Source: Elusimicrobiota bacterium
Lineage (GTDB): Bacteria; Elusimicrobiota; Elusimicrobia; FEN-1173
Direction: 5' to 3'
DNA: 64,000 nt
Assembly (NCBI GenBank): GCA_041917295.1
Contig: JAYRXX010000063.1
Coordinates: forward strand, 21,583-85,582
Shown here: in pieces, positions 13,068-40,562 of the stretch
Position numbering within the stretch: position 1 is the first letter of the stretch
Layout: the number at the start of each line of letters is the position of its first letter
Notes under the pieces: generated by a model
What the model was told of the DNA's origin: nothing
Databases searched by the model: none
Seen by the model: only the letters and a program-made list of their open reading frames with translations
Made by a program: the position numbers and the translations under genes

Positions 13068-14153
13068 CTATTTTTCCGCCACGATGAGGATGTGATCCAC
13101 GGGCAAGCCGGTCACCGTGTGTAATTTACGGAACCCCACTTTACGCAACCAGGCTTCGTATTCCCCCACTGAATAGAGATAGCCTGTTCCGGTGGCAATC
13201 CCCAAAAAGTAAGGGTTTCCCAACGCGGTGCTGACGGGCCCCTTTTCTTCCGCGTCCATGGCCATTCCGAACAACGCCAACGCACCGCCGGCCGGCAGGG
13301 CGTCGAACGCCTTTTTCATCAGGCGTTGGTCCGTGGCTTCCTCCCAAATGGAAAAGAGGTGGCAAAACAGGATCAAGTCGGCCCCTTGGGGGAAAGGATC
13401 TTCCAACAGGTTTCCCGGGTGCGTACTGACACGAGCCTGAAGACTGTGACTTTCGATGTTTTGGCGAGCCATTTCGCACACGGAGGGAAGGTCCATGATG
13501 GTGGCTTTCAAATGGGGATAATGCCGGGCAAAGGCCAGGGCGTTGGTCCCGTTTCCGCCCCCGATATCCACCAAATGTTTGAAACGGGAAAAGTCAAAAG
13601 ATTCCAACAGGGCCTCGTTGGCTTGGCGGGACAAACCCTCCATGGCCCGGGCAAAAACCCGTTCTTTGAAGGGGTCCGAACGCAAACGGGCGTAAAGCGA
13701 GTCGCCTTGCCCGGGAAACTTGTCGAGACCGGTGTTCTTGTTGGCGCGCAACGAACCGGCAAAATCTTCCAGACCGGGATAGACGATGTAACGTTGCCAC
13801 GCCATGGTGTCGCCCAAATATTCGGGTCTTCCTTCCACGAGACAGCGGTCGGCCCAGGCGCTGAGCGAATAGAGGTCGCCCTCTTTGAGAAGAACCCCCA
13901 AACTGACAAGTCCCGTGACCAACACGCGCACGGGCCGTTCCTGCAGGTTAAGGCCTTCGGCGATCTCTTTTCGCGTCAGCCCGGGCCGAGCCGACAGCAA
14001 ATTGTAAAGTCCCAGTTCCACCCCGGCCCACAGACATTGAAACGCCGCGTGACCTTCAATCAATAAATTTAGTTTTTCTTCGGTTAAATTGTCTCGAAAA
14101 AGCTCGTTGTTGGCGAACCGCATGGGCGTCTTTTCGTCCGCGTCCTTGTTCAT
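13068..14153 (-). CDS. class I SAM-dependent O-methyltransferase (family 2 OMT; CrtF / hydroxyneurosporene-OMT-like fold)
   Basis: N-terminal dimerisation/winged-helix region plus the SAM motif LVDIGGGNGTNALAFARHYPHLKATIMDLPSV. Confidence 0.75.
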   Translation of the reverse strand: MNKDADEKTPMRFANNELFRDNLTEEKLNLLIEGHAAFQCLWAGVELGLYNLLSARPGLTRKEIAEGLNLQERPVRVLVTGLVSLGVLLKEGDLYSLSAWADRCLVEGRPEYLGDTMAWQRYIVYPGLEDFAGSLRANKNTGLDKFPGQGDSLYARLRSDPFKERVFARAMEGLSRQANEALLESFDFSRFKHLVDIGGGNGTNALAFARHYPHLKATIMDLPSVCEMARQNIESHSLQARVSTHPGNLLEDPFPQGADLILFCHLFSIWEEATDQRLMKKAFDALPAGGALALFGMAMDAEEKGPVSTALGNPYFLGIATGTGYLYSVGEYEAWLRKVGFRKLHTVTGLPVDHILIVAEK

Positions 14154-14267
14154 GAGTCACTCCTTTGGGTCGGATTGGGTGTTTCCTTTCTTCAGTATAG
14201 CTCACCTCCGAAAAACCCGTGTAAAGAAGATGTCACATTCGTGTAAAATTTTTCCCATAAAAAACCA

Positions 14268-24759: not shown

Positions 24760-27700
24760 TCAAGGGCTGACAATAACCCGCTGTTGGGCGCGCAAAAAAA
24801 TAACTTCAAAACCGCATTTTTCGCCTAGCGCCGACTCCACCGCTTTGCGATAAGCCGTTCCTTGAGCTTCGTAATTCCGCGCCTGTTCCTCGACGTGTGC
24901 GGCGTCCACCCGGTCGGTTTTGTAATCGGCCACCCACAGGCCCCCGTCCCGACGATAAAGAAGGTCGATGACCCCCCGCACAATCACGTCGCCGTCCGGG
25001 TAAAGAAACGGGGCTTCCCGGGCCAAAATGTCCGCGCGATCAAACGATCGCCCCAGCGGCGACGAAAAATAACCAGACAAAATGACCTTCGCTTCCCGAA
25101 GAACTTCCGGGTCGGATTGGATCTCCGGCCCCAACCGTCGCAGGGCCCGCTCCAACACCGACGCAAGATCGGATTTTCCCCATTCCCACAATTCCAGAAC
25201 CCCGTGGCACAATTGGCCCACCCACGCCGACCGAGCCCCCGCGCCGGGAGACGAATCGTCGGCCCAGACCGCGCGCGCCCGAGGGTGCTCCCCATCAGAG
25301 GGACGGCCGAACAACGGCCGGCCCTGGAGGCGCTGTCCGTTAGCCCGGCGGACCGCCCACAGGTGTTCCAGCTCGCTGGTGAGGAGCGGCGGGCTCGGAC
25401 TTTTTTGTTCGGACCACAACGGAAGCGGGGCGTTTTCGGGGCCGATTTGGCGGGGCACCAGGGCAAGTTGGGATTGGCCCGACAGCATTTCCATAAACGA
25501 TCCCGTGGACGATTTCTCCCCGCCCACCAAAATCACACGCTCCCGGGCCCGGGTGGCGGCCACGTAGAATAACCGGATGGCCTCTTCCTTTTCCCGTCGG
25601 CGTTCGTCGAGATCCATGAACGCCATGGCCAGGTCGGCCCATTTTCGCTTCACCAACCGATGGCCCGCCCGGCCTTCGGCCCAATCCAACCGAAACGCCG
25701 CCGGGCGATGGGCGGCCCCCCGCACAGTCGCGGACAAGTTGGGCAATATCACCACTTTGTATTCCAACCCTTTCGCCTTGTGAACCGTCAACAGGCGGAC
25801 CGCCGCGGTTCGGTCTTCCCCCAGAGGATTTTCGCCCTCTTCCACGCCCCGCCCCACGTCGCCGGCCACCCGTCGAACAAACCCGCCAACCGTTTCGCCC
25901 CGGGTTTCGCCGGCCTCGGCCGCCAACCGGGCCACCTTATGCAGATTGGCCACGGTTTGTTCCCCATGATACGCCGCCGCGCAGGCCGCCACGAACTCCG
26001 TCTGTTCCACCACCCGAGCCGCCAGGGCCCCCAAGGACTCCGTGCGCGCGGCCTGTCTCAAATCCGTGAGCGTTTTAACCAATTCCGCGATTCGGCTGTT
26101 TACCTCCGGCGGAACCGACGGGCCCCCTTCCCAGGAACCGGCGTCGGCCAGGGCCATCACGTATCGGTCTTCCACCATCATCCAAGGTGACCGCAGAAGG
26201 CCCACCCACGACACACGATCATTCGGATCGTCCAACACCCGCAACACATTTAAAAAATCCGTGACTTCCGGCGTGCCATAAAACGCCCGGTCGCTTTCAA
26301 CCCGATAGGGGATTTTGGCGTCTTTTAAGGCCGCCATATAGGCCGACAGCGGCGACGTGGATCGAAACAACAGGGCCACATCCCCCAACCGCCATGGCCG
26401 GCCAGACCCCTCCGGCCCGCACTGGCCGACGATCCACCGGGCGATCCAACGGGCCTCGGCGGCCACACCGCCGTCAACCACGACCAGGTCCACGTCTCCG
26501 CCGGAACCAGGGACCCCAAGAGATGGACGCTCCTCCCCTGCCCTGTCGTTTTCTTCGGGCCGAGGCAACAACGGCAAGTAGGCCGGCTGAAGGCCTTTTT
26601 CTTCACGCATCAAGCCGGAAAACAGCCGGTTGACCGGATCAACGATCCGCTCGTGGGTGCGGAAACTTGTCTGCAAGTCGCATTTGATTCCCCCCTGGGA
26701 AATGACCAAGGACACAAACGCTTCGTAGGCGCGTATGTCCGCTCCCCGGAACCGATAAATCGATTGTTTTGGGTCGCCCACAATGAACAGTTTTCCCGGC
26801 TCTAATTTGACGTCGCTCCACCGATCCGCTGCGGAGTTGGGCCCTTCCGCCAAAAACAGCAACATTTCACCTTGGAGTGGATCGGTGTCTTGAAACTCGT
26901 CCACCATCACGGCGCCGAAACGCTCCTTCAATTCCCGCCGCACCGCCGGATGGCGGGCCAACAGGTCCCGCGCGCCGCGCAACAAATCATCAAAACCCAA
27001 CCACCCCTGGGCCCGATAGTGTCGGCGGCACAGGTCGGCAAACGGCGCCAACAACCGACGAGCGCGAACCAACACCGCTTCCCCTTCCGGCGAAATTCGG
27101 TTGGCCAATTCCCCGGCTTGGGTATAAACGTCGACCCCGGGCAACCCCTTCCATTCACCGGGCCACTTTTTTAACGATTCTTTCCAATCCGACGGTTCCG
27201 AAATCGGACCGTCCGGATCCCGGACCACCTGCTCCACCGCACGCAGGCGTTGGGCGATGGAAGAAATGGACTTTAACATGTCTCCCCGGGCGGGTTTGGG
27301 TTTTCCTTCCGGCAACCGCTCCAGCGCTTCCCGAAGTTCCACCAGCCGATGAAGGAGCGGCGCCGTGTCTGTTTCGCAGGGCGGGTATTTTGACAAGGCC
27401 CGGGCCAACAGACCCAGGTCTCCCACCCCCGCGTGGGCCAACACGTCCCGCCACTGTTGTTCCCGGGGACTATCCAGAACCAATTCCTTTTCCAACCACA
27501 GCGACCATTGCGCCTGAAAAACGTCTTCGAACCCGCTTCCTTTATCCACTTGAAAATGGGGGTTCACCCCCGCTTCCACCGGGTAAAGTTGGATCAATGT
27601 TTTACAAAAGCTGTGGATTGTTCCGATGGGCGCGCGGTCCAGATCGCGCAACGCCTCGTGCGCCATGCGCCGCAACCGATCGTCGTCGGCCCCAAATTCG

Positions 27701-28017
27701 GTTCGCGCTTCGGCCAACCAGAATTTCATCCGCGCCGCCCGCTTGTCCGGAACAGGCAGGTCTTGAAGAACGCGCAACAAATCGTTCAACCGTTCGGCCA
27801 ACCGGATTTTTATTTCCCCCGCGGCTTTCTCCGTGAACGTGAGCGCCACGATGCGGGTGATGGACAACCCCGCCCGGTCCGGACCCCCGGCCAAGAGCAG
27901 GAACATCAACCGGTCTGTTAACAAGGTCGTTTTCCCGGTTCCCGCGCCGGCTTCAACCACGATGTTGGCGTCCAAGATTTTCCGCGCGGTGTCGCGGGAT
28001 TGTTGGTCCGCCGTCAT
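24760..28017 (-). CDS. addA: ATP-dependent helicase/nuclease subunit A (UvrD-family helicase + RecB-type PD-(D/E)XK nuclease)
   Basis: Walker A EAGAGTGKTT in a UvrD/Rep-like N-terminus. The C-terminal nuclease motif GVIDLLYRRDGGLWVADYKTD. 4-nt overlap with the upstream addB-like gene. Confidence 0.8.
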   Translation of the reverse strand: MTADQQSRDTARKILDANIVVEAGAGTGKTTLLTDRLMFLLLAGGPDRAGLSITRIVALTFTEKAAGEIKIRLAERLNDLLRVLQDLPVPDKRAARMKFWLAEARTEFGADDDRLRRMAHEALRDLDRAPIGTIHSFCKTLIQLYPVEAGVNPHFQVDKGSGFEDVFQAQWSLWLEKELVLDSPREQQWRDVLAHAGVGDLGLLARALSKYPPCETDTAPLLHRLVELREALERLPEGKPKPARGDMLKSISSIAQRLRAVEQVVRDPDGPISEPSDWKESLKKWPGEWKGLPGVDVYTQAGELANRISPEGEAVLVRARRLLAPFADLCRRHYRAQGWLGFDDLLRGARDLLARHPAVRRELKERFGAVMVDEFQDTDPLQGEMLLFLAEGPNSAADRWSDVKLEPGKLFIVGDPKQSIYRFRGADIRAYEAFVSLVISQGGIKCDLQTSFRTHERIVDPVNRLFSGLMREEKGLQPAYLPLLPRPEENDRAGEERPSLGVPGSGGDVDLVVVDGGVAAEARWIARWIVGQCGPEGSGRPWRLGDVALLFRSTSPLSAYMAALKDAKIPYRVESDRAFYGTPEVTDFLNVLRVLDDPNDRVSWVGLLRSPWMMVEDRYVMALADAGSWEGGPSVPPEVNSRIAELVKTLTDLRQAARTESLGALAARVVEQTEFVAACAAAYHGEQTVANLHKVARLAAEAGETRGETVGGFVRRVAGDVGRGVEEGENPLGEDRTAAVRLLTVHKAKGLEYKVVILPNLSATVRGAAHRPAAFRLDWAEGRAGHRLVKRKWADLAMAFMDLDERRREKEEAIRLFYVAATRARERVILVGGEKSSTGSFMEMLSGQSQLALVPRQIGPENAPLPLWSEQKSPSPPLLTSELEHLWAVRRANGQRLQGRPLFGRPSDGEHPRARAVWADDSSPGAGARSAWVGQLCHGVLELWEWGKSDLASVLERALRRLGPEIQSDPEVLREAKVILSGYFSSPLGRSFDRADILAREAPFLYPDGDVIVRGVIDLLYRRDGGLWVADYKTDRVDAAHVEEQARNYEAQGTAYRKAVESALGEKCGFEVIFLRAQQRVIVSP

Positions 28018-31004
28018 GGGACGATGTCCTCCTCCGATTCAATGGAGCCCAGGGCCCGACGTCGCGTGGGTCCGTGGGCCTTTCGGCACGCCCGGGCAAA
28101 CCCGCACAGGGAACAGTGGGAACCCGGCCCATCGGTCGGACGAATCACAAACTCGCCGTTGCGGATTTTTGATAACAGCTCCCCTCGCGCTTTAACGAGA
28201 GCGGGACCGTGTTTGTCCCAATCCTCCGCCGACAAAATGTCGGTTTCCGGTGCGGTCAACGATTCAAACCGAACGCCCCCGCACACCGCCCCGGGGCCCC
28301 ACAGGCCCTGGGCCGACACCATTTCCAAATAGGCGGGAGCTTGGTGAGCCTGACCGGCGGCCACCCGTTTCAGCAACGGCTCTTTCATGATTTTGTTTTT
28401 GTAATCCACCACGGTCCATCGGCCGGTCTGGGAAGAATAATCCACCCGGTCGATGCGTCCGTTCCAAAAAAAATCGGTGCCCGTCATGGGGGCTTTGATA
28501 ACCCACTCCAATTTCTCGGGCCGGGCGCCCTCTTGGATTAAGCGCGCCACGTCACGGCGAACAAAATCCGCCAATCGGCGGGTCACCCGATCGACCACCG
28601 TGCGCCACACCAACGGATAGGGGCCCGCTCCCTCGCCGACCGCGTCGGCAAAAAACGGGCCCGCCTCCTTTTGAAGATGGTCCGCGGCCGTGGCCGGGTC
28701 GGGAATCCCCTGAGCGGCAAAATCCCCATACACCCGATTCAACAAAGCGTGTTGAAGGGACCCCAACGCGGCGGGGAGAGGCCCCTCTTCGTCATAAAAA
28801 GGTCGAGGTTCTCGAATGCTCAACACCTGGGCCATAAAAAACTCGAACGGGCAATTTGCCGCCGTTTCCAACGCGCTCGGGGACAAACCCCGGCGAACGC
28901 ATCGGTCCAAAAAGGCCTCCGGTGCCTCCACGCGACCGTCCCACGGGCCTGGATGGTTCCCTTTAACCAGATGGGTCGCCCGTCGAACCGTTTCGCCCAA
29001 GGAACCCGTTGGATCCCGCCCATCTAAAATGTCCGCCAGGGCCGCTTCCCGGAGGGTCAATGTGTTTGCCGAAACAGACGTCCATTTGGCCAAGGGAGGA
29101 CGGGGTACCCGTTCGGCCTCGTCCACGTCGAGACCCAGAGCGCTCGCCAGGGTTCGCAGATACAAAGACGGAATTTCTGTCCGTCCTTCTTCTCCGGACC
29201 GGGAATAGACCAAATACAACCGCTCTTGAGCCGACGAAATTAACAGGGTGAACAACAGTTTTTCTTCATCGTGCCCTTCCCGTTTAGGCAAAATCCAATA
29301 TCCACCCGGGTCCCGCAAAAACCGTCGGGCGTCGTCGTTCAACAAGGGATCTTCCCGAATCACCCGGGGAAACACGCCTTCCTTCAGGCCAATCAAAAAC
29401 AAAACCCGGAAAGATTCTCCCCGGGCGTCCATGGCGCCCATGACCCGAACGCCCTGGACCGGCCCCGTCCCGTCGGCCCGGGCTTGACGCAGGGCCTCTG
29501 AAAAGGCCGAAACAAATTCGTCATTCTTTACCGGAGGCGAAAACCGATCCAATTCCGCTAAAGAATCAAGTGTTCGCGACACGGGATCCAGCGTATCCAG
29601 AACCGACGGATCCACCAGCCTTTGCCACTGTTCGCGAAGGGCATCGGCGTGGGCTTTCCACGATCGTTCCCCCTCATCAAAATCAAGCCCGGCTGACCCC
29701 TTGGAAGCCCCCCCGACTTGAAGAAACAATTCGGCAAGCGCCGGAATTTTTTGAGCGGCGGGCGCAAGAAGATGGTTGAACCCCGCCCGGGGCCCCGCCG
29801 TGATCAAATAGCTTCGGGCTTCCCGAACAGCCGCGGAGGTAAAGAGATCGGCCCGAAGGAGCGGAGAGGACAACAAATCAAGCAAAACGGTGCGATCGTG
29901 GCCGTGAGTCCGAACCCCCGCCAGGTTTAAAGCAAACCGAGCCGCGGGTTTGGCCAACAGGGGTCCCCCGTCAGTCAGAGAAAATGGGATCCCATGGGCG
30001 AAGAAAATTTCATGAACCAACCCGGTGTAATTTTCCACCCCGCGCGCCACCACGCCCATGTGGTTCCAATCCACAGGATTGGATCCTTCCCGCAACGTCA
30101 GGATTTCTTTGGCCACGCGCCAAACTTCGTCCCGTTCTCCGGAGACATTCAAAATGCGGACATTTCCCTCCCCCTGTTGCGTTAAGAACCCCGGATCGAA
30201 AATACGATCTGCCAGGACACCCAACACCCGCGGTTCGCGGGACGTTCCACTTTGAATTCGGGCCCCCCCCCACGGAATGTTGACGTCCAAAAATCGCTCG
30301 GCAAACGACCACCCCGGGCTCCCCTTGACGCAGGGGAAAAAAAGCGTGACCGGAGCCGATTGGGCCATAGCCCGGAAAAAATCCGACTGGGCCCCGTTTA
30401 AATCGTAAAACCCGTAGTAGAGGAATTCGTCGTAGACAGACAAGAGGGCCGGGTCGGATTCCACGGCGATCGCGGCCCGACGGGCCACATCGGCGGACCC
30501 CGCTACGTTCGCTTGGTCCAACCGGGCCCGATAGGCGTCGGCCATGTCAATCAACCGGTCCAGTTTTTCTTTGCCGGAAAAATTCAAATCAGAGAAATGC
30601 TCGCGGAAATGGCTACCCACCACGCCCGCTTCCACCAAATCCCGCAACGTGGACCGATACGCTCCCGCCAGTGCCCGGGCCCGCTCGGAACCCATTTGAT
30701 ATTCTTTCAACAAAATCCGTTCCACAACCCGTTCATGAAAAAGGTCGTCGTTGATCACGGTCGGCAACGGTCCACCGGCCAACCGCAACACATCCAACGC
30801 CAAGCTGTTTAAAGTATGGAACCGAATGTTGAACAAAGAAAGGCCCCGCTCGGCCGACAACAACCGCTGGAGTCGTTCGGCCATCCGCTGAGACGCCGTG
30901 ACCACCGCCACCCGCCGCCCTGGTCCCGGGGGGGTTGTTGTCAGATAGGAAACGAAGGATTCTTCAAGATAAGAAAACGAACCCACCTGAAGGGAAAGGG
31001 ACAT
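28014..31004 (-). CDS. addB: helicase/nuclease subunit B-like (inactivated helicase + RecB-type nuclease with Fe-S cluster)
   Basis: Nuclease motif GRIDRVDYSSQTGRWTVVDYKNK. C-terminal Cys cluster ...NCPFEF... and CSLCGFARAC (C-x2-C-x5-C), typical of the AddB iron-staple. Confidence 0.75.
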   Translation of the reverse strand: MSLSLQVGSFSYLEESFVSYLTTTPPGPGRRVAVVTASQRMAERLQRLLSAERGLSLFNIRFHTLNSLALDVLRLAGGPLPTVINDDLFHERVVERILLKEYQMGSERARALAGAYRSTLRDLVEAGVVGSHFREHFSDLNFSGKEKLDRLIDMADAYRARLDQANVAGSADVARRAAIAVESDPALLSVYDEFLYYGFYDLNGAQSDFFRAMAQSAPVTLFFPCVKGSPGWSFAERFLDVNIPWGGARIQSGTSREPRVLGVLADRIFDPGFLTQQGEGNVRILNVSGERDEVWRVAKEILTLREGSNPVDWNHMGVVARGVENYTGLVHEIFFAHGIPFSLTDGGPLLAKPAARFALNLAGVRTHGHDRTVLLDLLSSPLLRADLFTSAAVREARSYLITAGPRAGFNHLLAPAAQKIPALAELFLQVGGASKGSAGLDFDEGERSWKAHADALREQWQRLVDPSVLDTLDPVSRTLDSLAELDRFSPPVKNDEFVSAFSEALRQARADGTGPVQGVRVMGAMDARGESFRVLFLIGLKEGVFPRVIREDPLLNDDARRFLRDPGGYWILPKREGHDEEKLLFTLLISSAQERLYLVYSRSGEEGRTEIPSLYLRTLASALGLDVDEAERVPRPPLAKWTSVSANTLTLREAALADILDGRDPTGSLGETVRRATHLVKGNHPGPWDGRVEAPEAFLDRCVRRGLSPSALETAANCPFEFFMAQVLSIREPRPFYDEEGPLPAALGSLQHALLNRVYGDFAAQGIPDPATAADHLQKEAGPFFADAVGEGAGPYPLVWRTVVDRVTRRLADFVRRDVARLIQEGARPEKLEWVIKAPMTGTDFFWNGRIDRVDYSSQTGRWTVVDYKNKIMKEPLLKRVAAGQAHQAPAYLEMVSAQGLWGPGAVCGGVRFESLTAPETDILSAEDWDKHGPALVKARGELLSKIRNGEFVIRPTDGPGSHCSLCGFARACRKAHGPTRRRALGSIESEEDIVP

Positions 31005-31050: not shown

Positions 31051-31965
31051 TCAGGCGGCGCCGGTGGCGGGCAAGCGGGATTCGGAGCTGGAGGAACGCA
31101 CTTCGGTCGTCAGCGTTGCTTCCAGATCGGAAAAAGAGGCCCCCGCTTTGTAGGAAAATCCGATCCGGACAACGTCCCCCAGCCCGACGGGGAAGGCTTT
31201 CGGCAGCGGTAAGATCAAATAGTGGCTGTGCCAATCAATGGTTTTTTTTGTTTCGGACACAACCGCCAGGATGTTTTTCGTAATAAACCGGAGGGCATTC
31301 AGGGCCCCTTCTTTTTCAATCTCAATTTCGCCGCTCCAATCGCAGCGGGCCGGGATGGAGTCTTTGTACGTATGCAACTGATACACTTTCGGCATCCCCA
31401 ACTCCCGTGTTTTTTCGTGCAAAACATTGGGATTTTGAAGAATAGGGATCGGGGCGTAATACCCATCGAAGGTAAAATCGTGTTCCACCGGTTGCACGGC
31501 CTGGATAAAGGCCTCGGGAACAAACTGGGGCAACGGGTTCCCAAACCGAGCCAGATATCGTTCTTTAAATGAATTGAGAATAGGAATTTGTTTTTCCCTC
31601 AACATGGCCACATGGATCATTTCACAGATCACCACGTCCACGGGTTCCGGGGGCAGGTATTTGAACGCGTCCGCTTTGATCACCTTTATTTTATTGCCGC
31701 ACTCGTTCATTGAAAGGATCTGTCTTGCTTTCGACACGAGTTCCGGATTGCGCTCAACGCACCACACTTTTCCGGCTTTGAGTCCCGCGAAATAGGAAAG
31801 AACCCCGGTTCCACCACCCAATTCCAAGACCTTCCCCCCCAGCGGAACCAAATAATCAATAGCGGTTTTAAACCCGCGCATGCGGGTGACGTCGCTGAGC
31901 ATGTTGTGATGGTAGTGCAGGGGGATAAACTGCCCCAGCACCGAGGAGTCGTCCGCTCGAACCAT
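31051..31965 (-). CDS. PRMT-like (protein arginine N-methyltransferase fold) class I SAM-dependent methyltransferase
   Basis: Motif I VLELGGGTGVLS, post-I VDVVICEMIHVAMLREKQ (PRMT double-E-loop-like), and an N-terminal ...HHNMLSDVTRMRGFKTAI pre-motif. GC is lower than in flanking core genes. Confidence 0.6.
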   Translation of the reverse strand: MVRADDSSVLGQFIPLHYHHNMLSDVTRMRGFKTAIDYLVPLGGKVLELGGGTGVLSYFAGLKAGKVWCVERNPELVSKARQILSMNECGNKIKVIKADAFKYLPPEPVDVVICEMIHVAMLREKQIPILNSFKERYLARFGNPLPQFVPEAFIQAVQPVEHDFTFDGYYAPIPILQNPNVLHEKTRELGMPKVYQLHTYKDSIPARCDWSGEIEIEKEGALNALRFITKNILAVVSETKKTIDWHSHYLILPLPKAFPVGLGDVVRIGFSYKAGASFSDLEATLTTEVRSSSSESRLPATGAA

Positions 31966-32090
31966 GCGAGCCTTCTTTACTTAAGTTGGGGACACGGCCA
32001 AACCGCTTCCGGGACCCAACGTAAGTATCGGACGAATTGGGAATTTCTTAACGGAGAGAAAAATAAAAATGGCAAAAACGTTGCTTGTAT

Positions 32091-32099
32091 GTGAAACAA
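32091..32099. repeat. target-site duplication, left copy (GTGAAACAA)
   Basis: Identical 9-mer directly flanks both IS ends. Confidence 0.6.
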
Positions 32100-33387
32100 C
32101 ACACCTGTCCGGGGAAAAAATAAGGGAATCCCCCGTTATTGGTAAAATGATTGTGCGAACAATTCATTTTATCGACGGAGGATTCCCGTGGCCCATTATA
32201 ACACGATTTTAAATCAGTTGCTGTTCCATGTCCCCCGACATCAATTCGACCGACTGGTCGAAACCCACCAAGCGGACCGCTACGCGAAAACGTTTAGCAC
32301 CTGGAACCAGCTAACGGTGATGCTCTATGCCCAATCGAGCGGTAAAGAGAGCTTGCGTGAAATTGAACAAGGACTGGAAACCCAAGAGAGCAAAACCTAT
32401 CACGTGGGATTGGCAGGGCCTGTTCGGCGGACGACGTTGGCGGATGCCAACGGGCGGCGAAAGTGGGAAATATTCAGGGGAGTGTTCGGAGAGTTATTGA
32501 CCCGGTGCCGATCGGTGACGCCAAAGCACAAATTTCGGTTTAAAAACCCACTGTATAGCATTGACTCGACGGTCATCAGCCTATGTTTGAGCCTTTTCCC
32601 CTGGGCGCGGTATCGAACGGCGAAGGGGGGCCTGAAACTTCATTACCAGCTGGATTACGCGGGCCATATCCCGAGCTTAATGGTGATCACAGAGGGTCGA
32701 GAAAATGATGTGTCCGTGGCGAAAAAGGATATACCGATTGAACCGGACAGCATCTATTGCTTTGATCGGGGGTATGTGGACTTCGGGTATTTCCGACGGT
32801 TGGAGAATATGGGGTGCACGTTCGTGACACGGGTGAAAAAGAACCTGTCCTATTGGGTTACCGGACAGCAGGAATGCTTGAAAAACCGCGGTGTTTTGAT
32901 GGACGCGACGATTGAGCGAGGGCAGGGGGAGTATGTGGGCAAGGATTGCCCGCTACGGCTGATCCGTTACTACGATAAGGAGAACGATCGGACGCTGGAG
33001 TTCCTGACCAACAACATGACGTTTGCAGCAACGACGATTGCGGAGATCTACAAAGCCCGCTGGCAGATCGAGGCATTCTTCAAGTGGATCAAGCAGAACT
33101 TGAAGATCAAGACGTTCCTTGGCACGACGGAAAACGCGGTGCTAAGCCAGATCTGGGTGGCGATGATTTATTACTTGTTGTTGGCTTACATCAAATATCA
33201 AACCAAATACGGCCGTTCGCTGTTCTATTTGCACCGGGTGATTAAGGAGACCTTGTTGGATCGGATCTCCCTGATGGATCTTCTCAACTTAAACGAAGCC
33301 AGGCTTAAAAGATTGAAGCGACTTGACCCGCAACTCCATTTTTCCTTTATCGCCACCTAATTTCCAAACTTTCCCCGGACAGCTGTG
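32100..33387 (+). mobile_element. intact IS4-family insertion sequence (1288 bp)
   Basis: 18-bp terminal inverted repeats CACACCTGTCCGGGGAAA (32100-32117) and reverse-complement CACAGCTGTCCGGGGAAA (33370-33387), 17/18 identical, starting with CA. 9-bp direct repeats flank it. A single DDE transposase ORF lies inside. GC is ~50%. Confidence 0.75.
32188..33360 (+). CDS. IS4-family DDE transposase
   Basis: 390 aa. N-terminal DUF4372-like region and a DDE domain with CFDRGYVDFGYF and ...YKARWQIEAFFKWIKQNLKIK (the YREK-like IS4 signature). Confidence 0.85.
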   Translation: MAHYNTILNQLLFHVPRHQFDRLVETHQADRYAKTFSTWNQLTVMLYAQSSGKESLREIEQGLETQESKTYHVGLAGPVRRTTLADANGRRKWEIFRGVFGELLTRCRSVTPKHKFRFKNPLYSIDSTVISLCLSLFPWARYRTAKGGLKLHYQLDYAGHIPSLMVITEGRENDVSVAKKDIPIEPDSIYCFDRGYVDFGYFRRLENMGCTFVTRVKKNLSYWVTGQQECLKNRGVLMDATIERGQGEYVGKDCPLRLIRYYDKENDRTLEFLTNNMTFAATTIAEIYKARWQIEAFFKWIKQNLKIKTFLGTTENAVLSQIWVAMIYYLLLAYIKYQTKYGRSLFYLHRVIKETLLDRISLMDLLNLNEARLKRLKRLDPQLHFSFIAT

Positions 33388-33396
33388 GTGAAACAA
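33388..33396. repeat. target-site duplication, right copy (GTGAAACAA)
   Basis: See the left copy. Confidence 0.6.
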
Positions 33397-33562
33397 TAGT
33401 TTACAAAAGATTTACAAGTTGTTAAGGCGAAATTAACTTGGTTCAGTTACAATATCCTCGTTAAAATTGTTTCACCTATTTTCCAAAGATAATTAATGGC
33501 TTATTTGCTTATGTCAATGCGCTACTGCATAGTTATACAGGAACGAAAGGCATTTCCATGCC

Positions 33563-33600
33563 CGTCATTCCGGCGTGGGGTTAGCCGGAATCCAGTCGTT
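33563..33600. repeat. short palindromic element, copy 2 (REP-like), just upstream of the giant gene
   Basis: CGTCATTCCGGCGTGGGGTTAGCCGGAATCCAGTCGTT. Shares the CGTCAT(C/T)CCGGC...GCCGG(G/A)ATCCAGTC(A/G)TT frame with 18183-18215. Confidence 0.35.
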
Positions 33601-33620
33601 TCTGTCTTGAGGGGGCCACA

Positions 33621-36600
33621 GTGATGTCGTTATTCTTTTCGGTTTCCGGGATTCGCAGGCGTTGGTCGGTCTTCGCGCTCAGTGTGATATTTTTTGGGTC
33701 CAATGTCCTTGCCGTCCATGCGGGAGAGGCCAGTTTTTGGGCGGAGCGTCGCAATGTCTCCCGACGAATGCATGGGGTGGAAGCAAAATCCGGGGCCACC
33801 GGGTTCGGGCTGACGGCGGAACAGTATCAGACCCTGACCCAACTGCCGAAGGCTGGCCAGTTGAACCCCGGCAGCATTCAGGGCGGTTCATCCGTCGGCT
33901 CTGGACGGGCAGTGTCCCCCCCTGTTTCGAACGTCTTTCGACCTTTTGAACACCCGACCCTTTTGGGTGACACCCCCACGTGGGTGTCACAGCTTATCCT
34001 CCCTTACGGGTCCATCCTTGAGGCGCATCTCGCCAAAAAAACCAACGCGCCCTTCATCGTCCACATCCAGGACGCCCACGGGATCGAGGAAGCCCAAAAG
34101 AACATGGCGGCCATGATCGAGGGGCTGAGCGAAAACCGCGGGGTGAGCCTGGTCGGGGTTGAAGCCGCCCAGGGCCCTTTCAACATGGGACCCTACCGGG
34201 ACTGGCCGGACGCAAATGTGACCCGTGACGTGGCCACCTATTTCCTCAAAGATGGCACAATCGGCGGAGCGGAATTCGCCGGGATCACCGCCCCCAAGCC
34301 TCTGACACTTTGGGGGATCGAGGATACAGACCTTTACCTCGCTAACGTTCATGCCTTAATAGACGCCAACAAGCTGAAACCGGAACTAACAAAAGCCTTA
34401 GCCGGTATCAAAAGGTCCGTTTCTTCCCTCAAGGAAACGATTTATTCCAAGGAACTGAAAGACTTTGACAAGCATTTCCAGGCCTATCAAGACCAACGGG
34501 AAGGGCTGGGAGCCTATGTCCGATTTTTAACGGCCGGATCACTGTCAAACAAAAAGGGGTTGCCGAACCTCCACCTTCTGGTCAAGGCTCTCATGGCCGA
34601 AGAGGCCCTGGACTTCAAGCAAGTGGAGAAAGAACGGCTCAAGCTGGTGGAAAGGCTGGCCCTTCGCCTTGCCAAGGATAAGCTGGACCTCCTTGTGCAA
34701 AAGAGCTTCCAATACCGCGCCGGTCAAATTGGCTACGGCGATTATCATCGGTTTCTAAAATCTCTGTGCCGTGAAAACGGGATCTCCCTGGGCGACCTGA
34801 ACCAACTGGACAATTATATCGAATACGTCCTCCTGGCAGACAAGATTGACCGAAACAACCTATTGAACGAGTTGACCCGCGCCGAAAAGGCCTCTCAAGA
34901 CCGGCTGGCGATCACGTCCGAACAAAAAAAACTACTGGCCGTCGCTCGGCGCCTGGCCCTCCTTGAAAAACTCTCGACCCACACCATGACGCCAGACGAT
35001 TGGGCGGCCTTCGAGAAAGAAAGAGAACATATTCTGACCATCGCCTCCGACCTTGCCACCCTTTCCGGCGAAGAACAGGCGCTACCCCTTGACACCCTGG
35101 CCGGTCTGATCAGTCCGTCAGAAAGTTTTTGCCGTTTTGCCATCGACCGCAACGCCGCTTTCATTGACAACCTTTCCGCCCAAATGGAAATGAAAAAAGC
35201 ATCCTCGGCAGTCCTCGTAGCCGGAGGCTTCCATTCCGACGGCCTAACCCGCCTTCTCCGGGAAAGAGACTTATCATATGTGGTGGTCACCCCCAAAATC
35301 AGCGAAGTCCCCAAAGAGAATAATTACTTGGATGTATTTGCCCGTGACCCATTGCCCCTAGAAAAACTGTTCGCGGGGGAAAAGATTTCGTTAAACAGCG
35401 CTAGGCTGTCCGGTGGAACGATGAGGGGGTTTGAGGGCCCGGCGTCCGCTTTTCGGCGCGAAGGGGTGGCCACCATGGCCGCCACGGCTTCTCTTGAACC
35501 GAACGTGGATCACACAGCTCTCAGTCGGACGGCGGAGAGCACCGCGGCGGAGCTTAGCGCACCCATGTCGATCAAGATTTCCGGCAGTTCCAACCGTACG
35601 TGGACAACCATCGACACCAATGGGGACGGTCAAGTCGACCTGAAAATGATAGCGACTCCTTCGGGACGTTCGCTGCCGCCGCAGGAAGATTCCCCTCCCT
35701 TGTCAACAGTGGAGATCGACGGCCGCGCCAAAATTACCTTTCACCAAATCCGTCCAGGTTTATTCAAAAAAGTTTGGGCTTCGATCCGGAAAATATTTCC
35801 CATCCGCAGTCCGGTGAACAGCCGTGGTGGGGTCGAACAAACACCTACATCGAACACCGCTTTCCCCATCCTTCATGTCCCCCAGGGGGGCCTGATTGGG
35901 AAGTTTCGTCTTTTGTCCGACCCTCAATGGGATCCCGCTTCAAAAACTGTCTCTTTTGTGGGGCAAGACATTGAAAACCCGGGCAAACCACCCGAAACAA
36001 TTCGCCTTGAGGCTGAAATCGTTGATCGAGAGGAATGGGCCGACCGCCTTTATTCGAGTCTATCTGGTAGGGAAAACGACTTGGTGACTGAGATCATGGA
36101 TTGGTTTCAAGACGCTTTCCATGGTCCATTGATCGTTTTAAGAGACAATCCCATCACCCAAGGCATAGGGACCCAGGTGGGAGAGCAAGGCGGATTCGTA
36201 GCCGTTTCTGAACGCTACGCTAATAATCACATCGCTTGGTTTCACGAGATTGCGGAAGCCATGGCCCCGAATGCCGATGAAATCCTCTCACGACTTTCCC
36301 CAAACTCACAGGCCTGGTACAAGGCCCATATGTCCAAACCGGGCCGACAGGGTATGGAACGGCACTACGCCATCCGGGCTCTCCAACGTGAAGTATTTCG
36401 GCAATCTGACTTAAGTTTGACCTATGAAATCAAGGGCCGATTGTCCGCCACGGATATCTCGAAAAAACTCAGTTCGGCCAAATTAAAAAAAGGGTTTGTC
36501 GTTCGGAATGAGTTTTCCCGGCAACGCTCTTCGCAGAACAGCCGGGAGGGTGAAATATCTTTATTGGAAGATCTGATCAAGACCCAGAGGAAGGCCGAGG

Positions 36601-39600
36601 AAGAAGAAATTGAAAGACAACGGATTGAACAAGAAGAGATCGAACGGCGCCATGCCGAAGAAACAGCTGTAAGGGTTAAAATTCGATCTCTTCTCGATCG
36701 AGCAAAGGGGATTATCGAAGCCCCCTTGGCTTCGGATTTGGCGCACGAACACCGGTTAATAGAAAAAGACAAGGCCGCCCTCGCCGCCGTTTCCGTTCTT
36801 CGGCCGTTATTCGAAATGAATCCCGAATGGGTGGCGGAGGCACTGGTTGAAGATTTGATGGCTGGTGGCGCAACGCCGGCGGACCTCTATTCCCTCATGG
36901 GGAAAGACTCATTTGGGGTATACCTTGCGAAGAATGTTGTCCCCCAGTTGGGAGAGAGGGCCTTATCGCAAACATTATTAAAGCTGATGGAGAAACGATC
37001 GACATTGCAATGGAATAGACGAGCATTCAAAGCCCACGCTGCCGTCGTCACCCTTTTCGTCGACCATGCGCCAAGACTGGGGGAACGTGTAACCGCTGAG
37101 GTCGCCGGGCCGCTTCTCATGGCCCTACGAAAGGAATTTAGGGCTCGGCCGTACACGCGCTTGAGTTTTGTTCAAGGCATTCCTGATTACAGGAGATACT
37201 TCGACGTGGATGGAGACGTGGTCTTCTTTAAAGACGACTTCTTGAATAGATTGCTGGTGCGAGACATGGGAGCCCGCCGGAACCTACACACGCTGTACCA
37301 TGAGGCCATTCGCGAACAGGAATATTTGTCAAGTTTAACCGACAACTTGCTGTCAAAGGACACCGAGGGGCATCTTTTTAACGCCCTCCTTTCAGCGCTC
37401 CATCAAGAGGGAAACCCGCTCGTGCGTGCTCATTTGGAGAGTAGTCTGATCCGCGCCTGGAGAACCACCCTCCCCTCCGCGCATGAGAGGTTATTAAACC
37501 TTGTCAAGGAGATTCAAGCAACACATCACAATGGCGATGAGAGATTAAAAGAAGACGCGATAGGACGCTTGTTAATGATCGCACACAAAGATGGTTGGGA
37601 TTCTGGAATTTCCTCTGACATTCTTTTTTCAATGGCCATGGATGGCTTGCCGGGATTATTCGAAGCGGTTCGATCCCAATCTTCGGAAATAGACAAAATG
37701 CCTCGCGGTATTGAAAGGGATATGGCAAACAGGCAAATGGGAGAGACGATGACGGCGGTGAAAAAGAGACTCGCCATTTTGTGGAGGGTGGCTTTAAGCG
37801 CGACGTCCCAATCATCCGTTCCGGCATCGATCTCCGTGGCGGGACGAGCCATGGCTTACCTTGTTGAAGTGGCGCAAATGGAAGGGGACATCGCCATCCG
37901 GTCCGAAACCATCGCTCTCCTTGGGATCGCGGTCGAAAAAGGTTACCCAGCCGCGGTTCGTGCGTTCCTTCCCTCAATACAGCCGTCTTCCCAACAATTC
38001 GAAAACCTTTTTTATGACAACCCCAGTGATGAGGTCATTCTTAACGCCCTACGGTCAAAGGCCATGTCTGTTCGTCTGGGGTTCCTCTTATTGCGTCGAT
38101 ACAAAAATGATCCAAGCCGCGCGGGGTTGCTGAAAGCCATCGTATTGGATAGGAAAACAAACGAGGGGGATTCCTTGGGCATTAATGCCCAAATTCGTTT
38201 CTATGCCTTTGCGCTCTACGGCAGTCAGTATTTGAAAACAACGAATGAAGATGGGATAACCTCTTCTTACGACGAGAATCAATTTCAAGAAATGGCCGGT
38301 GCGCTTGCGCCGCATGCACACGGTTTTATCGGGACCGCCATCGATGATTCAATACTCATCGACCGGCTGTTTGATGGTTGGCCTGGGCAGGACGAAGAGT
38401 TGGGAGCGTACGCAATCGCCACGGTCCTTGATGCCTTTCATGGGAATTTGACCGGTTTGAAAGCGAAGGGTTTTGTGGCGGTGGCAGAGAGAGTGGTTAA
38501 CGCCCGCGCCAGCTCCTATCTAAATAATGCCTATGATGATCTCTCGTTCGGAGGTCACTTTCTCCGAAGAGCTCAAAACCCCGTTCAATTCTTTTTTCAA
38601 GTAATGGTCCACGAACTCACGCACATCTTGTTGAAGAACCAACATGATTATTTGGCGGGGGAATTAGTCGGTGGGACGATTCATGAATGGTTGGCTGATT
38701 TGGCCGCGGAGGATTTTTCCAGGAGAAGGGGTTTATCCCTGGAGGATTACCGAGATATCTTAGGGTTTGATAGGGATTTATCATTTGTTGAAGAGGATTC
38801 GTTCCATACCATTGAGGTTCATGAGGGTGCACGGGCCCAGCAGTTGCTGATTGCAGGGTGGCTTTCGGAAAACGGTCTCACGCTTGATCCGTCAAAAATG
38901 GTTCGTGCGGCATTGGATGTTCTACCGGGAACGTCGGGCGATGACCTGGACGTTGTGGTAAGAAAGGTCCTTGAGAGGTTTGCGGGACGTCCGCTGGAGG
39001 ACTCAGAAACAGCGGGGATGAATCGTATGTTTCTGTCTTTGTTTGATTATAGATTCGATGAATTTATTGAGGGGAAGTATCGGCAAAGAATTCTTTCTTT
39101 GCCCGTTTTGCGTGAAATATTGAGCCCCTTGTTGGATGGGTTGGCCACCTCTCTTCAATCGGTGTTCCCTTCCGGACAGGAGGAAGGGGTTTTGGCGGAG
39201 GCGACCGCTCGCTCCCTGGCCGGAGCCGGCCTATGGACCGGGGGCCTCTTTCCATTGTTATCCCTGGGAACCAAAAACGTTTTGGACGCTGTCGCGAAGA
39301 GCCTTGCGGCATGGGGATTGGAACCAATAAAAGACATGAGTCCACGACTTTGGCCGCAAATGATTCAGGAGGCGATGGCGGGGGGACTTCAGTTAGAGCT
39401 GATACAATCCATCGTGGGCGCCCTGGCGAGGGACGGATTCATGGAAGAGCGTGCGTGGACTGCGAAGGAAAACGCCGCTCTTGAGAAGGTCCAAAGACGA
39501 TTGGCGTCGGACCTCCCGGGGGTTCGCGCCATTGAGTATGTGCGACTGGGATTTGGCAAAAAGGCCGTGGATCCCTCCACGGGGGCCGAAGTATCATTGG

Positions 39601-40562
39601 ACACAAGCTTGTTTATGGGGTTTGACATGAAACCGGATGGGACGTTAAGAGTTTTTGTCCATCCCGACGTTTTCAATGGGGCCGCCGACCCGGCCGCGTT
39701 TCTTCTCGATGCCATGATGCACGAGATTCTTGAAGGACCAGGGGGTGTGGAACACTCGATCCTTGAGGACGAAGGCATCGGAATGGACCGAAATATCGAT
39801 TGGCAGACAGCGGAGGCGCGAATTTCATCAGTCCAGTTGAGGTTGGCAACGAACTTATTGGAGCGATGGTCACGGGATGGTGATCCAGATGCCCTAATAA
39901 AATTGGCGATGGTTGGGGCTCATGGGGTGAATTGGGATGGAGCGCGGCCAGCGACCCCTGTCGGGGCCATGGGGCCGACGTTCGCTCTGGCGGGGGACCG
40001 TGGACAGCGGGCGTTGGCTCACCTCATGGCTGTGGCGGAGGATGTCGGAATGGATTCCACCCTGGTCGAACGATTGTTGCATCGGGGCCTTTTGGTGGCG
40101 GGTTGGCGGGCGGTATTGGCCGAGGCCCCCGGCGCGTTCCACTATGTGGACGTTTCCCCTCTGGATGAGGCTCCGGAATCCGAAAATCGGTTGGCCTGTG
40201 AAACGCTTCTTTCCGCTTTGGAGGTTGTTGTGGCCGCCGACCCAAATCCAACAAAGAGGGCCCAACAGATTTTTATCGGATGCGACAACCAGGGTCAAAA
40301 AACCTTCGTTGAGTCGCGGTTTCCGACCTTAAAGGGCTCTCGGTTTAAAACCAATCGATTTGAGGGAAAGGATATCGCTGTCGGATGGGCGGCAACCGAG
40401 GTCGACGAGGCCGGGTCGTCCTCTTTGCACGTTCACACGGTGCGGGAGTTGAACACCGACGGCACGCCTCCAGGGATCGACGTGGTGCCCAGCCCCTACA
40501 ACTTGAGCACGATCATGCAAAAAGCATTGGATTCCATTATCCGCGTCTTGATTGCCGCTTAA
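33621..40562 (+). CDS. giant secreted protein (2313 aa) of unknown function with HExxH zincin-like motif
   Basis: GAGGGGG RBS, then GTG at 33621 / ATG at 33624. Signal peptide MMSLFFSVSGIRRRWSVFALSVIFFGSNVLAVHAGEA. One HExxH (VMVHELTHILL, ~residue 1660) with a downstream Glu (GTIHEWLAD). Charged coiled-coil stretch EEEIERQRIEQEEIERRHAEE. No Walker motif or other recognisable domain. GC is clearly below genome background. Confidence 0.7.
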   Translation: MMSLFFSVSGIRRRWSVFALSVIFFGSNVLAVHAGEASFWAERRNVSRRMHGVEAKSGATGFGLTAEQYQTLTQLPKAGQLNPGSIQGGSSVGSGRAVSPPVSNVFRPFEHPTLLGDTPTWVSQLILPYGSILEAHLAKKTNAPFIVHIQDAHGIEEAQKNMAAMIEGLSENRGVSLVGVEAAQGPFNMGPYRDWPDANVTRDVATYFLKDGTIGGAEFAGITAPKPLTLWGIEDTDLYLANVHALIDANKLKPELTKALAGIKRSVSSLKETIYSKELKDFDKHFQAYQDQREGLGAYVRFLTAGSLSNKKGLPNLHLLVKALMAEEALDFKQVEKERLKLVERLALRLAKDKLDLLVQKSFQYRAGQIGYGDYHRFLKSLCRENGISLGDLNQLDNYIEYVLLADKIDRNNLLNELTRAEKASQDRLAITSEQKKLLAVARRLALLEKLSTHTMTPDDWAAFEKEREHILTIASDLATLSGEEQALPLDTLAGLISPSESFCRFAIDRNAAFIDNLSAQMEMKKASSAVLVAGGFHSDGLTRLLRERDLSYVVVTPKISEVPKENNYLDVFARDPLPLEKLFAGEKISLNSARLSGGTMRGFEGPASAFRREGVATMAATASLEPNVDHTALSRTAESTAAELSAPMSIKISGSSNRTWTTIDTNGDGQVDLKMIATPSGRSLPPQEDSPPLSTVEIDGRAKITFHQIRPGLFKKVWASIRKIFPIRSPVNSRGGVEQTPTSNTAFPILHVPQGGLIGKFRLLSDPQWDPASKTVSFVGQDIENPGKPPETIRLEAEIVDREEWADRLYSSLSGRENDLVTEIMDWFQDAFHGPLIVLRDNPITQGIGTQVGEQGGFVAVSERYANNHIAWFHEIAEAMAPNADEILSRLSPNSQAWYKAHMSKPGRQGMERHYAIRALQREVFRQSDLSLTYEIKGRLSATDISKKLSSAKLKKGFVVRNEFSRQRSSQNSREGEISLLEDLIKTQRKAEEEEIERQRIEQEEIERRHAEETAVRVKIRSLLDRAKGIIEAPLASDLAHEHRLIEKDKAALAAVSVLRPLFEMNPEWVAEALVEDLMAGGATPADLYSLMGKDSFGVYLAKNVVPQLGERALSQTLLKLMEKRSTLQWNRRAFKAHAAVVTLFVDHAPRLGERVTAEVAGPLLMALRKEFRARPYTRLSFVQGIPDYRRYFDVDGDVVFFKDDFLNRLLVRDMGARRNLHTLYHEAIREQEYLSSLTDNLLSKDTEGHLFNALLSALHQEGNPLVRAHLESSLIRAWRTTLPSAHERLLNLVKEIQATHHNGDERLKEDAIGRLLMIAHKDGWDSGISSDILFSMAMDGLPGLFEAVRSQSSEIDKMPRGIERDMANRQMGETMTAVKKRLAILWRVALSATSQSSVPASISVAGRAMAYLVEVAQMEGDIAIRSETIALLGIAVEKGYPAAVRAFLPSIQPSSQQFENLFYDNPSDEVILNALRSKAMSVRLGFLLLRRYKNDPSRAGLLKAIVLDRKTNEGDSLGINAQIRFYAFALYGSQYLKTTNEDGITSSYDENQFQEMAGALAPHAHGFIGTAIDDSILIDRLFDGWPGQDEELGAYAIATVLDAFHGNLTGLKAKGFVAVAERVVNARASSYLNNAYDDLSFGGHFLRRAQNPVQFFFQVMVHELTHILLKNQHDYLAGELVGGTIHEWLADLAAEDFSRRRGLSLEDYRDILGFDRDLSFVEEDSFHTIEVHEGARAQQLLIAGWLSENGLTLDPSKMVRAALDVLPGTSGDDLDVVVRKVLERFAGRPLEDSETAGMNRMFLSLFDYRFDEFIEGKYRQRILSLPVLREILSPLLDGLATSLQSVFPSGQEEGVLAEATARSLAGAGLWTGGLFPLLSLGTKNVLDAVAKSLAAWGLEPIKDMSPRLWPQMIQEAMAGGLQLELIQSIVGALARDGFMEERAWTAKENAALEKVQRRLASDLPGVRAIEYVRLGFGKKAVDPSTGAEVSLDTSLFMGFDMKPDGTLRVFVHPDVFNGAADPAAFLLDAMMHEILEGPGGVEHSILEDEGIGMDRNIDWQTAEARISSVQLRLATNLLERWSRDGDPDALIKLAMVGAHGVNWDGARPATPVGAMGPTFALAGDRGQRALAHLMAVAEDVGMDSTLVERLLHRGLLVAGWRAVLAEAPGAFHYVDVSPLDEAPESENRLACETLLSALEVVVAADPNPTKRAQQIFIGCDNQGQKTFVESRFPTLKGSRFKTNRFEGKDIAVGWAATEVDEAGSSSLHVHTVRELNTDGTPPGIDVVPSPYNLSTIMQKALDSIIRVLIAA

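Follow-up and report, generated by a model that had tools for sequence, protein, structure and literature searches.

The stretch analysed was a 64,000-nucleotide segment of contig JAYRXX010000063.1 (GenBank assembly GCA_041917295.1; positions 21,583 to 85,582 of the forward strand) from an Elusimicrobiota bacterium (GTDB lineage Bacteria; Elusimicrobiota; Elusimicrobia; FEN-1173), hereafter the window, and the feature under study was a 1288-bp insertion sequence (IS) at 32100-33387, upstream of a giant gene. The element is very probably an intact, new member of the IS4 family that inserts by sequence-directed, one-sided targeting beside a promoter-like module of giant secreted-protein genes in its Elusimicrobiota host. 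At nine of nine independent insertion sites the right end of the element was followed by 9 bp, by a further 2 bp and then by the host motif KKTTACAA-N4-KTTACAA-N-TTCTTAAG, the motif starting 12 nt past the right end, and the orientation of the element relative to the motif was the same at every site.

Insertion at a fixed offset from a host motif

The right flanks of all element copies in hand were compared, and these copies represented nine independent sites (A to I). Perfect 9-bp target duplications were found at five of them, with the 9-mers CGGGTATGA at site A (loci L009, L012, L013 and L014), TTTAGGGGG at site B (L010 and L011), GTGAAACAA at site C (the window), ACGATAAAA at site D (L003, L016 and L017) and TCAATGTGA at site G (L022). 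Sites E (L007) and F (L021) carried no duplication, and the left flank was missing at sites H (L025) and I (L026). The 9-mers differed between sites, the left flanks were unrelated, and the element lineages ranged from about 76% amino-acid identity (transposase) to 100% DNA identity.

The target motif spans about 28 bp and consists of two 7-bp direct repeats (KTTACAA) spaced 4 bp apart, together with TTCTTAAG. In the window it was located by position weight matrix (PWM) scans and by its common offset at the nine sites, and reads GTTTACAA-AAGA-TTTACAA-GTTGTTAAGG (33399..33436, + strand). A 28-nt PWM of the motif held 22.6 bits and gave one strong match in the window, beside the element; the only other match there, a weak motif-like one at 14248 (- strand, TTTTACACGAATGTGACATCTTCTTTAC), scored 18-21 against 37-44 for the real site and lay about 95 nt upstream of a 361-residue open reading frame (ORF; 13068-14153).

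An ordinary IS4-family element without target preference, of which only harmless intergenic insertions survived or were sampled, might be thought to produce such a collection, given that the loci were gathered through the element itself, that gene-disrupting insertions would be purged and that two right flanks (L019 and L002) carry no motif. Selection cannot, however, fix a junction to the base, and the motif stood at +12 in one orientation at all nine sites, where the two half-sites by themselves have a chance of about 2e-6 per site. Site D moreover holds two identical copies in tandem, with ACGATAAAA present three times, as expected if the first insertion regenerated the target and another followed into it; the second hit fell at the identical position, and this tandem re-insertion shows the left flank to be irrelevant to targeting. 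The two motif-free loci look rearranged, since L019 shares the left flank of site D and L002 is a deleted relic. Survival or sampling of random insertions is therefore a very unlikely account. As judged from the nine sites, insertion is site- and orientation-specific, one-sided and strict, and the position of the window element upstream of the giant gene, 2 bp before a conserved promoter-like module as at eight other sites, is on the same comparison not accidental.

As the motif always adjoins the right end and reads outward to the next gene, it could in principle belong to the mobile unit, with the right end lying beyond 33436, an outward promoter carried along and one-ended mobilisation of the ISEcp1 kind. 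Against this, the duplications at five sites bracket the 1288-bp unit and none a longer one, and the motif also occurs where the element is absent, namely at an empty site (L008, described below) and at L028, where it precedes a 66%-identical homologue of the window giant gene and sits in the same metagenome-assembled genome (MAG) as the occupied site F. Although the elements of A and B do not differ (100% identity), the flanks of these two sites have no more in common than a stretch of 25 nt inside the motif, matching at 84%, and nothing beyond it. Because it is kept at L008 and L028 without the element, and differs between sites whose elements are 100% identical, the motif is taken as host DNA, and its inclusion in the mobile unit is barely credible.

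Homologous recombination or gene conversion, instead of transposition, was also weighed as the route by which the element reached one paralogous giant-gene promoter after another. The downstream genes are paralogous and their upstream regions similar, and recombination between copies does occur, since L001, E and F have no duplications and the right flank of L019 is foreign. Five sites that each have their own perfect 9-bp duplication and an unrelated left flank nevertheless bear the signature of separate transposition events, and the homology outside the element extends over about 30 bp on one side only, so that we hold this alternative to be highly improbable.

An RNA guide and mimicry of a transposase-binding site were considered and rejected: no part of the element was similar or complementary to the motif on either strand, the best local alignment being no better than those obtained with shuffled sequences.

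Some further features of the occupied sites were recorded. Head-to-tail tandem pairs (L003, 2616-5203; L016, 1413-3997; L017; L018), with exactly the 9-bp duplication between the copies, were seen downstream of an ACR_tran efflux-pump gene in several metagenome samples. Mobile-element genes lie directly upstream of two occupied sites: a truncated group II intron reverse transcriptase (RVT_1 and GIIM domains) at site B (499-1320 in L010/L011), and an HTH_38 protein with an IS30-like N-terminus at site A (352-1344 in L009). The upstream edge of motif-bearing promoters may be a general landing zone for mobile elements.

Structure and classification of the element

The ends of the element were fixed by direct reading of positions 31900-33700 and by a repeat finder, and its assignment as a complete IS4-family insertion sequence on the + strand (32100..33387) was made from its ends, from profile matches and from copy alignments. 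The target duplication GTGAAACAA, which has no strand, occupies 32091-32099 on the left, where it is preceded by tgtat, and 33388..33396 on the right, where tag follows. The left terminal inverted repeat (IRL; 32100..32117, + strand) reads CACACCTGTCCGGGGAAA, and the right one (IRR; 33370..33387, - strand) reads TTTCCCCGGACAGCTGTG on the top strand and CACAGCTGTCCGGGGAAA as reverse complement. Both are 18 bp long with CA termini and agree at 17 of 18 positions; the sole mismatch, at position 5, is a C/G difference that was kept in all 14 aligned copies. IRL was identical across the 14 copies compared, and all copy ends were identical to those of the window. In the repeat finder's output the 9-nt direct repeat is labelled D16 and the terminal inverted repeat I1.

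The terminal-repeat pattern had only 2 matches in the window with 3 mismatches allowed (0.23 expected by chance), and no further copy or fragment of the 1288-bp element was found there. A 9-mer match at exactly both flanking positions has a chance of about 4e-6, and perfect 9-bp duplications were likewise present at four other insertion sites of the element. The original prediction, which had described 18-bp inverted repeats with CA termini and 17 matches, identical 9-bp flanking repeats and an uninterrupted 390-residue DDE transposase, was borne out on exact reading in each of these respects.

The transposase gene (32188..33360, + strand; GTG start, 390 aa) is open throughout and is the only long ORF inside the element. 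Its product contains the Pfam domains DUF4372 (residues 4-75) and DDE_Tnp_1 (PF01609; residues 121-331, 97.8 bits), an architecture common to thousands of homologues. The NCBIfam model NF033592 (transpos_IS4_1) gave 266 bits against a cut-off of 115, while the NCBIfam models for IS701, IS982, IS1634, IS5 and ISH3 all scored far under their cut-offs on this protein. The catalytic residues were assigned to D126 (IDST), D193 (FDRGY) and E295, with 66 residues from D to D and 101 from D to E, and the YREK signature reads Y288-KA-R291-WQI-E295-AFFKWI-K302. The DDE and YREK residues, six in all, were invariant in an alignment of 28 homologues of 57-98% identity. Searches of the PDB with the sequence and with profiles returned no match, and Tn5 transposase was reached by fold search alone: with an AlphaFold2 model (predicted local distance difference test score, pLDDT, 67) the top four Foldseek matches in the PDB were Tn5 transposase (E 1.6e-4, probability 1.0), at a template modelling (TM) score of only 0.28.

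The hallmarks of the IS4 family are a D(60-110)D(100-150)E arrangement, the signature Y-(2)-R-(3)-E-(6)-K in region C1, one ORF for the transposase and a duplication that spans roughly one turn of the helix, 8-13 bp (De Palmenaer, Siguier and Mahillon 2008, PMC2266710). All of these were found in the element (DDE spacing, YREK residues, a single frameshift-free ORF and the 9-bp duplication), together with the curated profile match, and the family originally predicted thus stands. Within the family, the IS4Sa subgroup comprises elements of 1150-1750 bp with ends of the form CA------T and duplications of 8-10 bp (PMC2266710, Table 1). The window element shares these three traits, being 1288 bp long, having T at position 9 in both ends (IRL CACACCTGT, IRR CACAGCTGT) and making a 9-bp duplication; its size, ends and duplication length thus fit a placement in IS4Sa. 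The IS4Sa transposase itself was recovered as a remote relative (24% identity, E 5e-12). The nearest named elements by protein identity in a plasmid collection were ISGme2 (42%), ISPosp4 (40%), ISAbe18 (37.5%), ISRel1 (36%) and ISRm16 (33%), and since no named element in that collection exceeded 43% identity, the element is, by the usual naming rule, a new and previously unnamed IS.

The giant gene (33621..40562, + strand; 2313 aa) starts 233 nt past the right end of the element and is co-oriented with it, in agreement with the distance of about 230 nt given originally. On the other side a divergent class I methyltransferase gene (PRMT-like; 31051..31965, - strand) has its start codon 134 nt from the insertion point and is not disrupted. 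An AddAB-like pair of helicase-nuclease genes was noted farther upstream, beyond that for the methyltransferase (24760-31004, - strand; UvrD helicase and PD-(D/E)XK domains, 1085 and 996 aa).

Age and activity

The original prediction had proposed comparison with an empty site, and such a site was found on a Joint Genome Institute (JGI) contig (L008) that carries a 92%-identical orthologue of the methyltransferase. The window aligns to L008 in two pieces, 31055-32099 and 33388-37234, which overlap by exactly nine L008 bases, and the L008 junction reads GCTTGCTT-GTGAAAAAA-AAGTTTACAAAAGATTTACAAG, where the 9-mer stands once and the element is absent. Identity of the flanks to the window is about 87-90%. 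Since L008 holds a single GTGAAAAAA and no element, the element entered after the window and L008 lineages split, and the 9-bp duplication arose from a 9-mer that was already present.

The claim that the insertion is recent can be kept in that sense: it post-dates the split from a lineage that is about 10% diverged, and 'recent' means no more than this. The claim that the copy is active holds for the family. Full-length copies of 84-98% identity with the same ends were found at L001, L003, L007 and L009-L023, those of 97-98% identity in several metagenomes and Elusimicrobia MAGs. One related genome has copies with 100% identity at two different sites, A and B, and a tandem pair at site D whose members are likewise 100% identical to each other; a single 814-kb contig carries both B and D. 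The transposase ORF was intact in 13 of 14 copies. With identical copies at different sites, intact ORFs and ends that are all identical, the element family is evidently active, and the activity of the window copy would follow from its intactness.

Exact-sequence look-ups of the window transposase and of the methyltransferase gave no match. A scan of a genome collection with the left end found only three decayed copies, all in one Elusimicrobia MAG, and of two metagenome scans the first, with the right end, gave nothing and the second one 85%-identical copy. The MAG in question (GCA_016714745.1; L002/L006, L004 and L005) contains decayed copies only, of about 90% identity; their damage consists of a 260-bp deletion inside the element and of truncations at 886 and 138 bp, and none of them stands beside the motif.

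The window copy might look intact and still be immobile, through missense changes or host silencing, and neither be active at present nor affect the giant gene. All other copies compared differ from it by 2-3%, no identical sister copy was found, and activity of the window copy is read from the sequence. Its catalytic and signature residues, however, are all intact, its ends are identical to those of recently moved copies and its duplication is perfect, and we consider an immobile copy unlikely.

The module beside the insertion and the genes behind it

Downstream of the motif a -10-like hexamer, TACAAT in the window (33448..33453, + strand) and TATAAT in the L008 orthologue, was found 21-22 nt from the motif, and a TAnAAT-like hexamer recurs at this fixed distance across sites. 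At A, B, D, F, I and L028 the ATG or GTG that opens the downstream gene follows 6-9 nt after the hexamer. Motif and hexamer together suggest the geometry of a promoter whose mRNA would have little or no leader. Numbered accordingly, the right end of the element would fall near -74, the direct repeats (11 bp from start to start) would span roughly -61 to -44 and the TTCTTAAG block roughly -42 to -35. The 7+4+7 layout of the direct repeats recalls what we take to be the binding sites of winged-helix response regulators, an analogy only. A sigma-70 consensus scan did not call the motif promoter, so that the promoter reading rests on the conserved geometry; the same scan found no outward -35/-10 pair at the right end of the element.

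Two further repeat features were seen in this region of the window. A perfect 11-nt inverted repeat (GGTGAAACAAT at 33387-33397 and ATTGTTTCACC at 33466-33476) flanks motif and hexamer on both sides, its first arm overlapping the right duplication. The leader of the giant gene (33454-33620) holds a hairpin (TTCCGGC...GCCGGAA, at about 33566-33592) followed by a T-rich run, with no match in Rfam.

Behind the motif, the genes of sites A, B, C and F have products of 3388, 4404, 2313 and 3945 aa, respectively. Homology (30-43% identity) covers the first 450 residues or so of these proteins, where a signal peptide comes first, and an FW-x-ERR motif is common to their N-terminal regions; the C-terminal domains differ (CofD, PEP-utilizers, SNF2/DUF488). 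The window giant protein has a signal peptide and no Pfam match, and the named relatives of this protein come from Elusimicrobiota, in line with a window host from that phylum. A 106-aa fragment at site G is weakly similar to the protein at F, including a short FW-x-RR motif after the signal peptide; only a signal-peptide-like N-terminus was readable at site I, and the downstream gene at site D is unrelated (359 aa). In L008 the giant-gene orthologue is split into ORFs of 1207 and 1126 aa by an ISL3-family transposase gene (4838-5995 in L008, corresponding to about 37223-37234 in the window), where the window copy is uninterrupted.

Because the insertion leaves the promoter-like module intact, the native promoter of the giant gene probably still works, and any effect of the insertion on expression would be indirect, through read-through or through displaced upstream DNA. 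Read-through into the giant gene is possible, since no terminator-like site was predicted from the transposase stop codon up to the giant gene. Equivalent sites are occupied repeatedly, which suggests that insertions of this kind are tolerated.

Predicted control of transposase synthesis

The 88-nt leader of the element is predicted to form a stem-loop (32124..32187, + strand; from folding and comparison) that pairs the Shine-Dalgarno sequence GGAGGA and abuts the GTG start codon. The predicted fold of 32100-32215 had a free energy of -37.8 kcal/mol (z -3.7), and the stem showed one compensatory change, A-U to G-C, in L025, the most distant lineage; the start codon itself alternates between GTG and TTG across the element lineages. 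No known RNA was found in 31900-33700 with Rfam.

A candidate -10 element for the transposase gene, TAAAAT preceded by TGG (32143..32148, + strand), lies inside the 5' half of the hairpin. It was missed by a two-hexamer consensus promoter scan. The sequence GGTAAAATG is invariant across the element lineages, whereas the neighbouring bases vary, and an extended -10 of the element itself could be provided by the invariant TGGTAAAAT, which falls in the 5' half of the stem-loop. Native transcripts starting from it would be without the 5' arm of the hairpin and translatable, and read-through transcripts from outside would be blocked. The leader hairpin, by covering the ribosome-binding site, thus probably prevents outside transcription from driving transposase synthesis. 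In IS10 and IS50 a leader structure hides the ribosome-binding site in read-through transcripts; what is known for these two elements is only predicted for the window element. A weak antisense promoter-like match (GGGACA-17-TAAAAT; 32234-32206, - strand) opposite the transposase start, which recalls pOUT of IS10, was not above the chance expectation of the scan.

Proposed mechanism and relation to known systems

The single DDE transposase would excise the 1288-bp element at its CA termini and reinsert it through a 9-bp staggered cut, as Tn5 and Tn10 do, and cut-and-paste through hairpin intermediates would be expected of a DDE/YREK transposase from its family membership. The right end always lands so that the 9-bp duplication and then 2 bp precede the host motif, and the element in this way parks beside the promoter, leaving the promoter, the giant gene and the divergent methyltransferase gene unbroken. 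Recognition of the motif would lie either with the transposase itself, most likely with the DUF4372 domain at its N-terminus, or with a host protein that occupies the direct repeats and tethers the transposase there. On balance we lean towards an element that homes to promoters by reading an activator-site-like module (two KTTACAA repeats and TTCTTAAG), inserting at a fixed distance and in a fixed orientation by way of DUF4372 or of a bound host regulator.

Several points weigh against these readings. No transposition was observed, and the nearest relatives of the window copy among those compared are only 97-98% identical to it. The loci were collected via the element, so that the comparison chiefly covers occupied copies of the motif. 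Duplications are absent at sites E and F and at L001, presumably through recombination between copies, the left flanks are missing at H and I, and the right flanks of L019 and L002 carry no motif. The promoter function of the motif is suggested by geometry only, the sigma-70 scan not having called it, and the giant gene of the window, like that of L008, has a leader of about 165 nt after the hexamer, against 6-9 nt in the relatives. Finally, the structural model of the transposase is only moderate (pLDDT 67, TM 0.28 to Tn5).

Insertion at a fixed distance from a recognised sequence is known from Tn7, which enters attTn7 via TnsD, from IS1397 and ISKpn1, which target repetitive extragenic palindromic (REP) sequences, and, in eukaryotes, from Ty3 and Tf1, which insert at promoters. 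The likeness to the window element is one of analogy and lies in the recognised sequence beside the insertion point, the fixed spacing and orientation and the harmless landing place. The difference is that these systems belong to other transposase families and usually employ a separate targeting protein or a host factor, whereas the window element consists of one ORF.

ISAba1 and other IS elements change the expression of downstream genes. Like them, the window element lies upstream of, and co-oriented with, a gene, with no terminator-like site predicted between the two; unlike in the case of ISAba1, there is no outward -35/-10 match at the right end, and the native promoter-like module is intact and not replaced. 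With IS10/Tn10 and IS50/Tn5 the window element has in common the 9-bp duplication and the DDE/YREK transposase; Tn5 transposase was also the best structural match, though at a TM score of only 0.28. It differs from them in its ends (CA here, CT/CTG there), in the N-terminal domain of the transposase, which in them is not DUF4372, and in the long one-sided target motif, to which nothing comparable is known in them.

To our knowledge, one-sided, long-range target recognition has no description for an IS4-family DDE transposase, and in a limited literature search no description was found of one-sided, orientation-fixed targeting of a promoter-like module over about 28 bp. Within the family, very strong target specificity has been described for IS4 of E. 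coli and for ISRm22, with conservation in both target arms (PMC2266710). In the window element the left arm and the 9-mer are unconserved, all information lies in a block of about 28 bp that begins 2 bp to the right of the duplication, and the specificity extends to orientation. IS110/IS1111-type elements select their targets with an RNA guide (PMC11187229). The transposase of the window element is of the DDE and not the DEDD type, and similarity and complementarity between motif and element did not exceed chance, so that a guide of that kind is not supported for it.

Implications

An intact insertion sequence on its own would be a routine finding. What sets this element apart is an unusually clean choice of target, nine independent insertions at the same base-pair offset and in the same orientation next to a long motif on one side, apparently made by a single-protein DDE transposase, which opens the recognition mechanism to direct test and may be of interest for targeted DNA insertion. 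For annotation of the host genome, the giant gene is probably not inactivated by the insertion. Should tethering to a host regulator prove true, the element would be a bacterial, single-protein counterpart of promoter targeting by Ty3 and Tf1, or of Tn7 with TnsD. For the Elusimicrobiota, the insertions point to a conserved promoter-like module shared by a family of very large genes (2300-4400 aa) whose function is unknown, and thereby give a first handle on the possible co-regulation of these genes.

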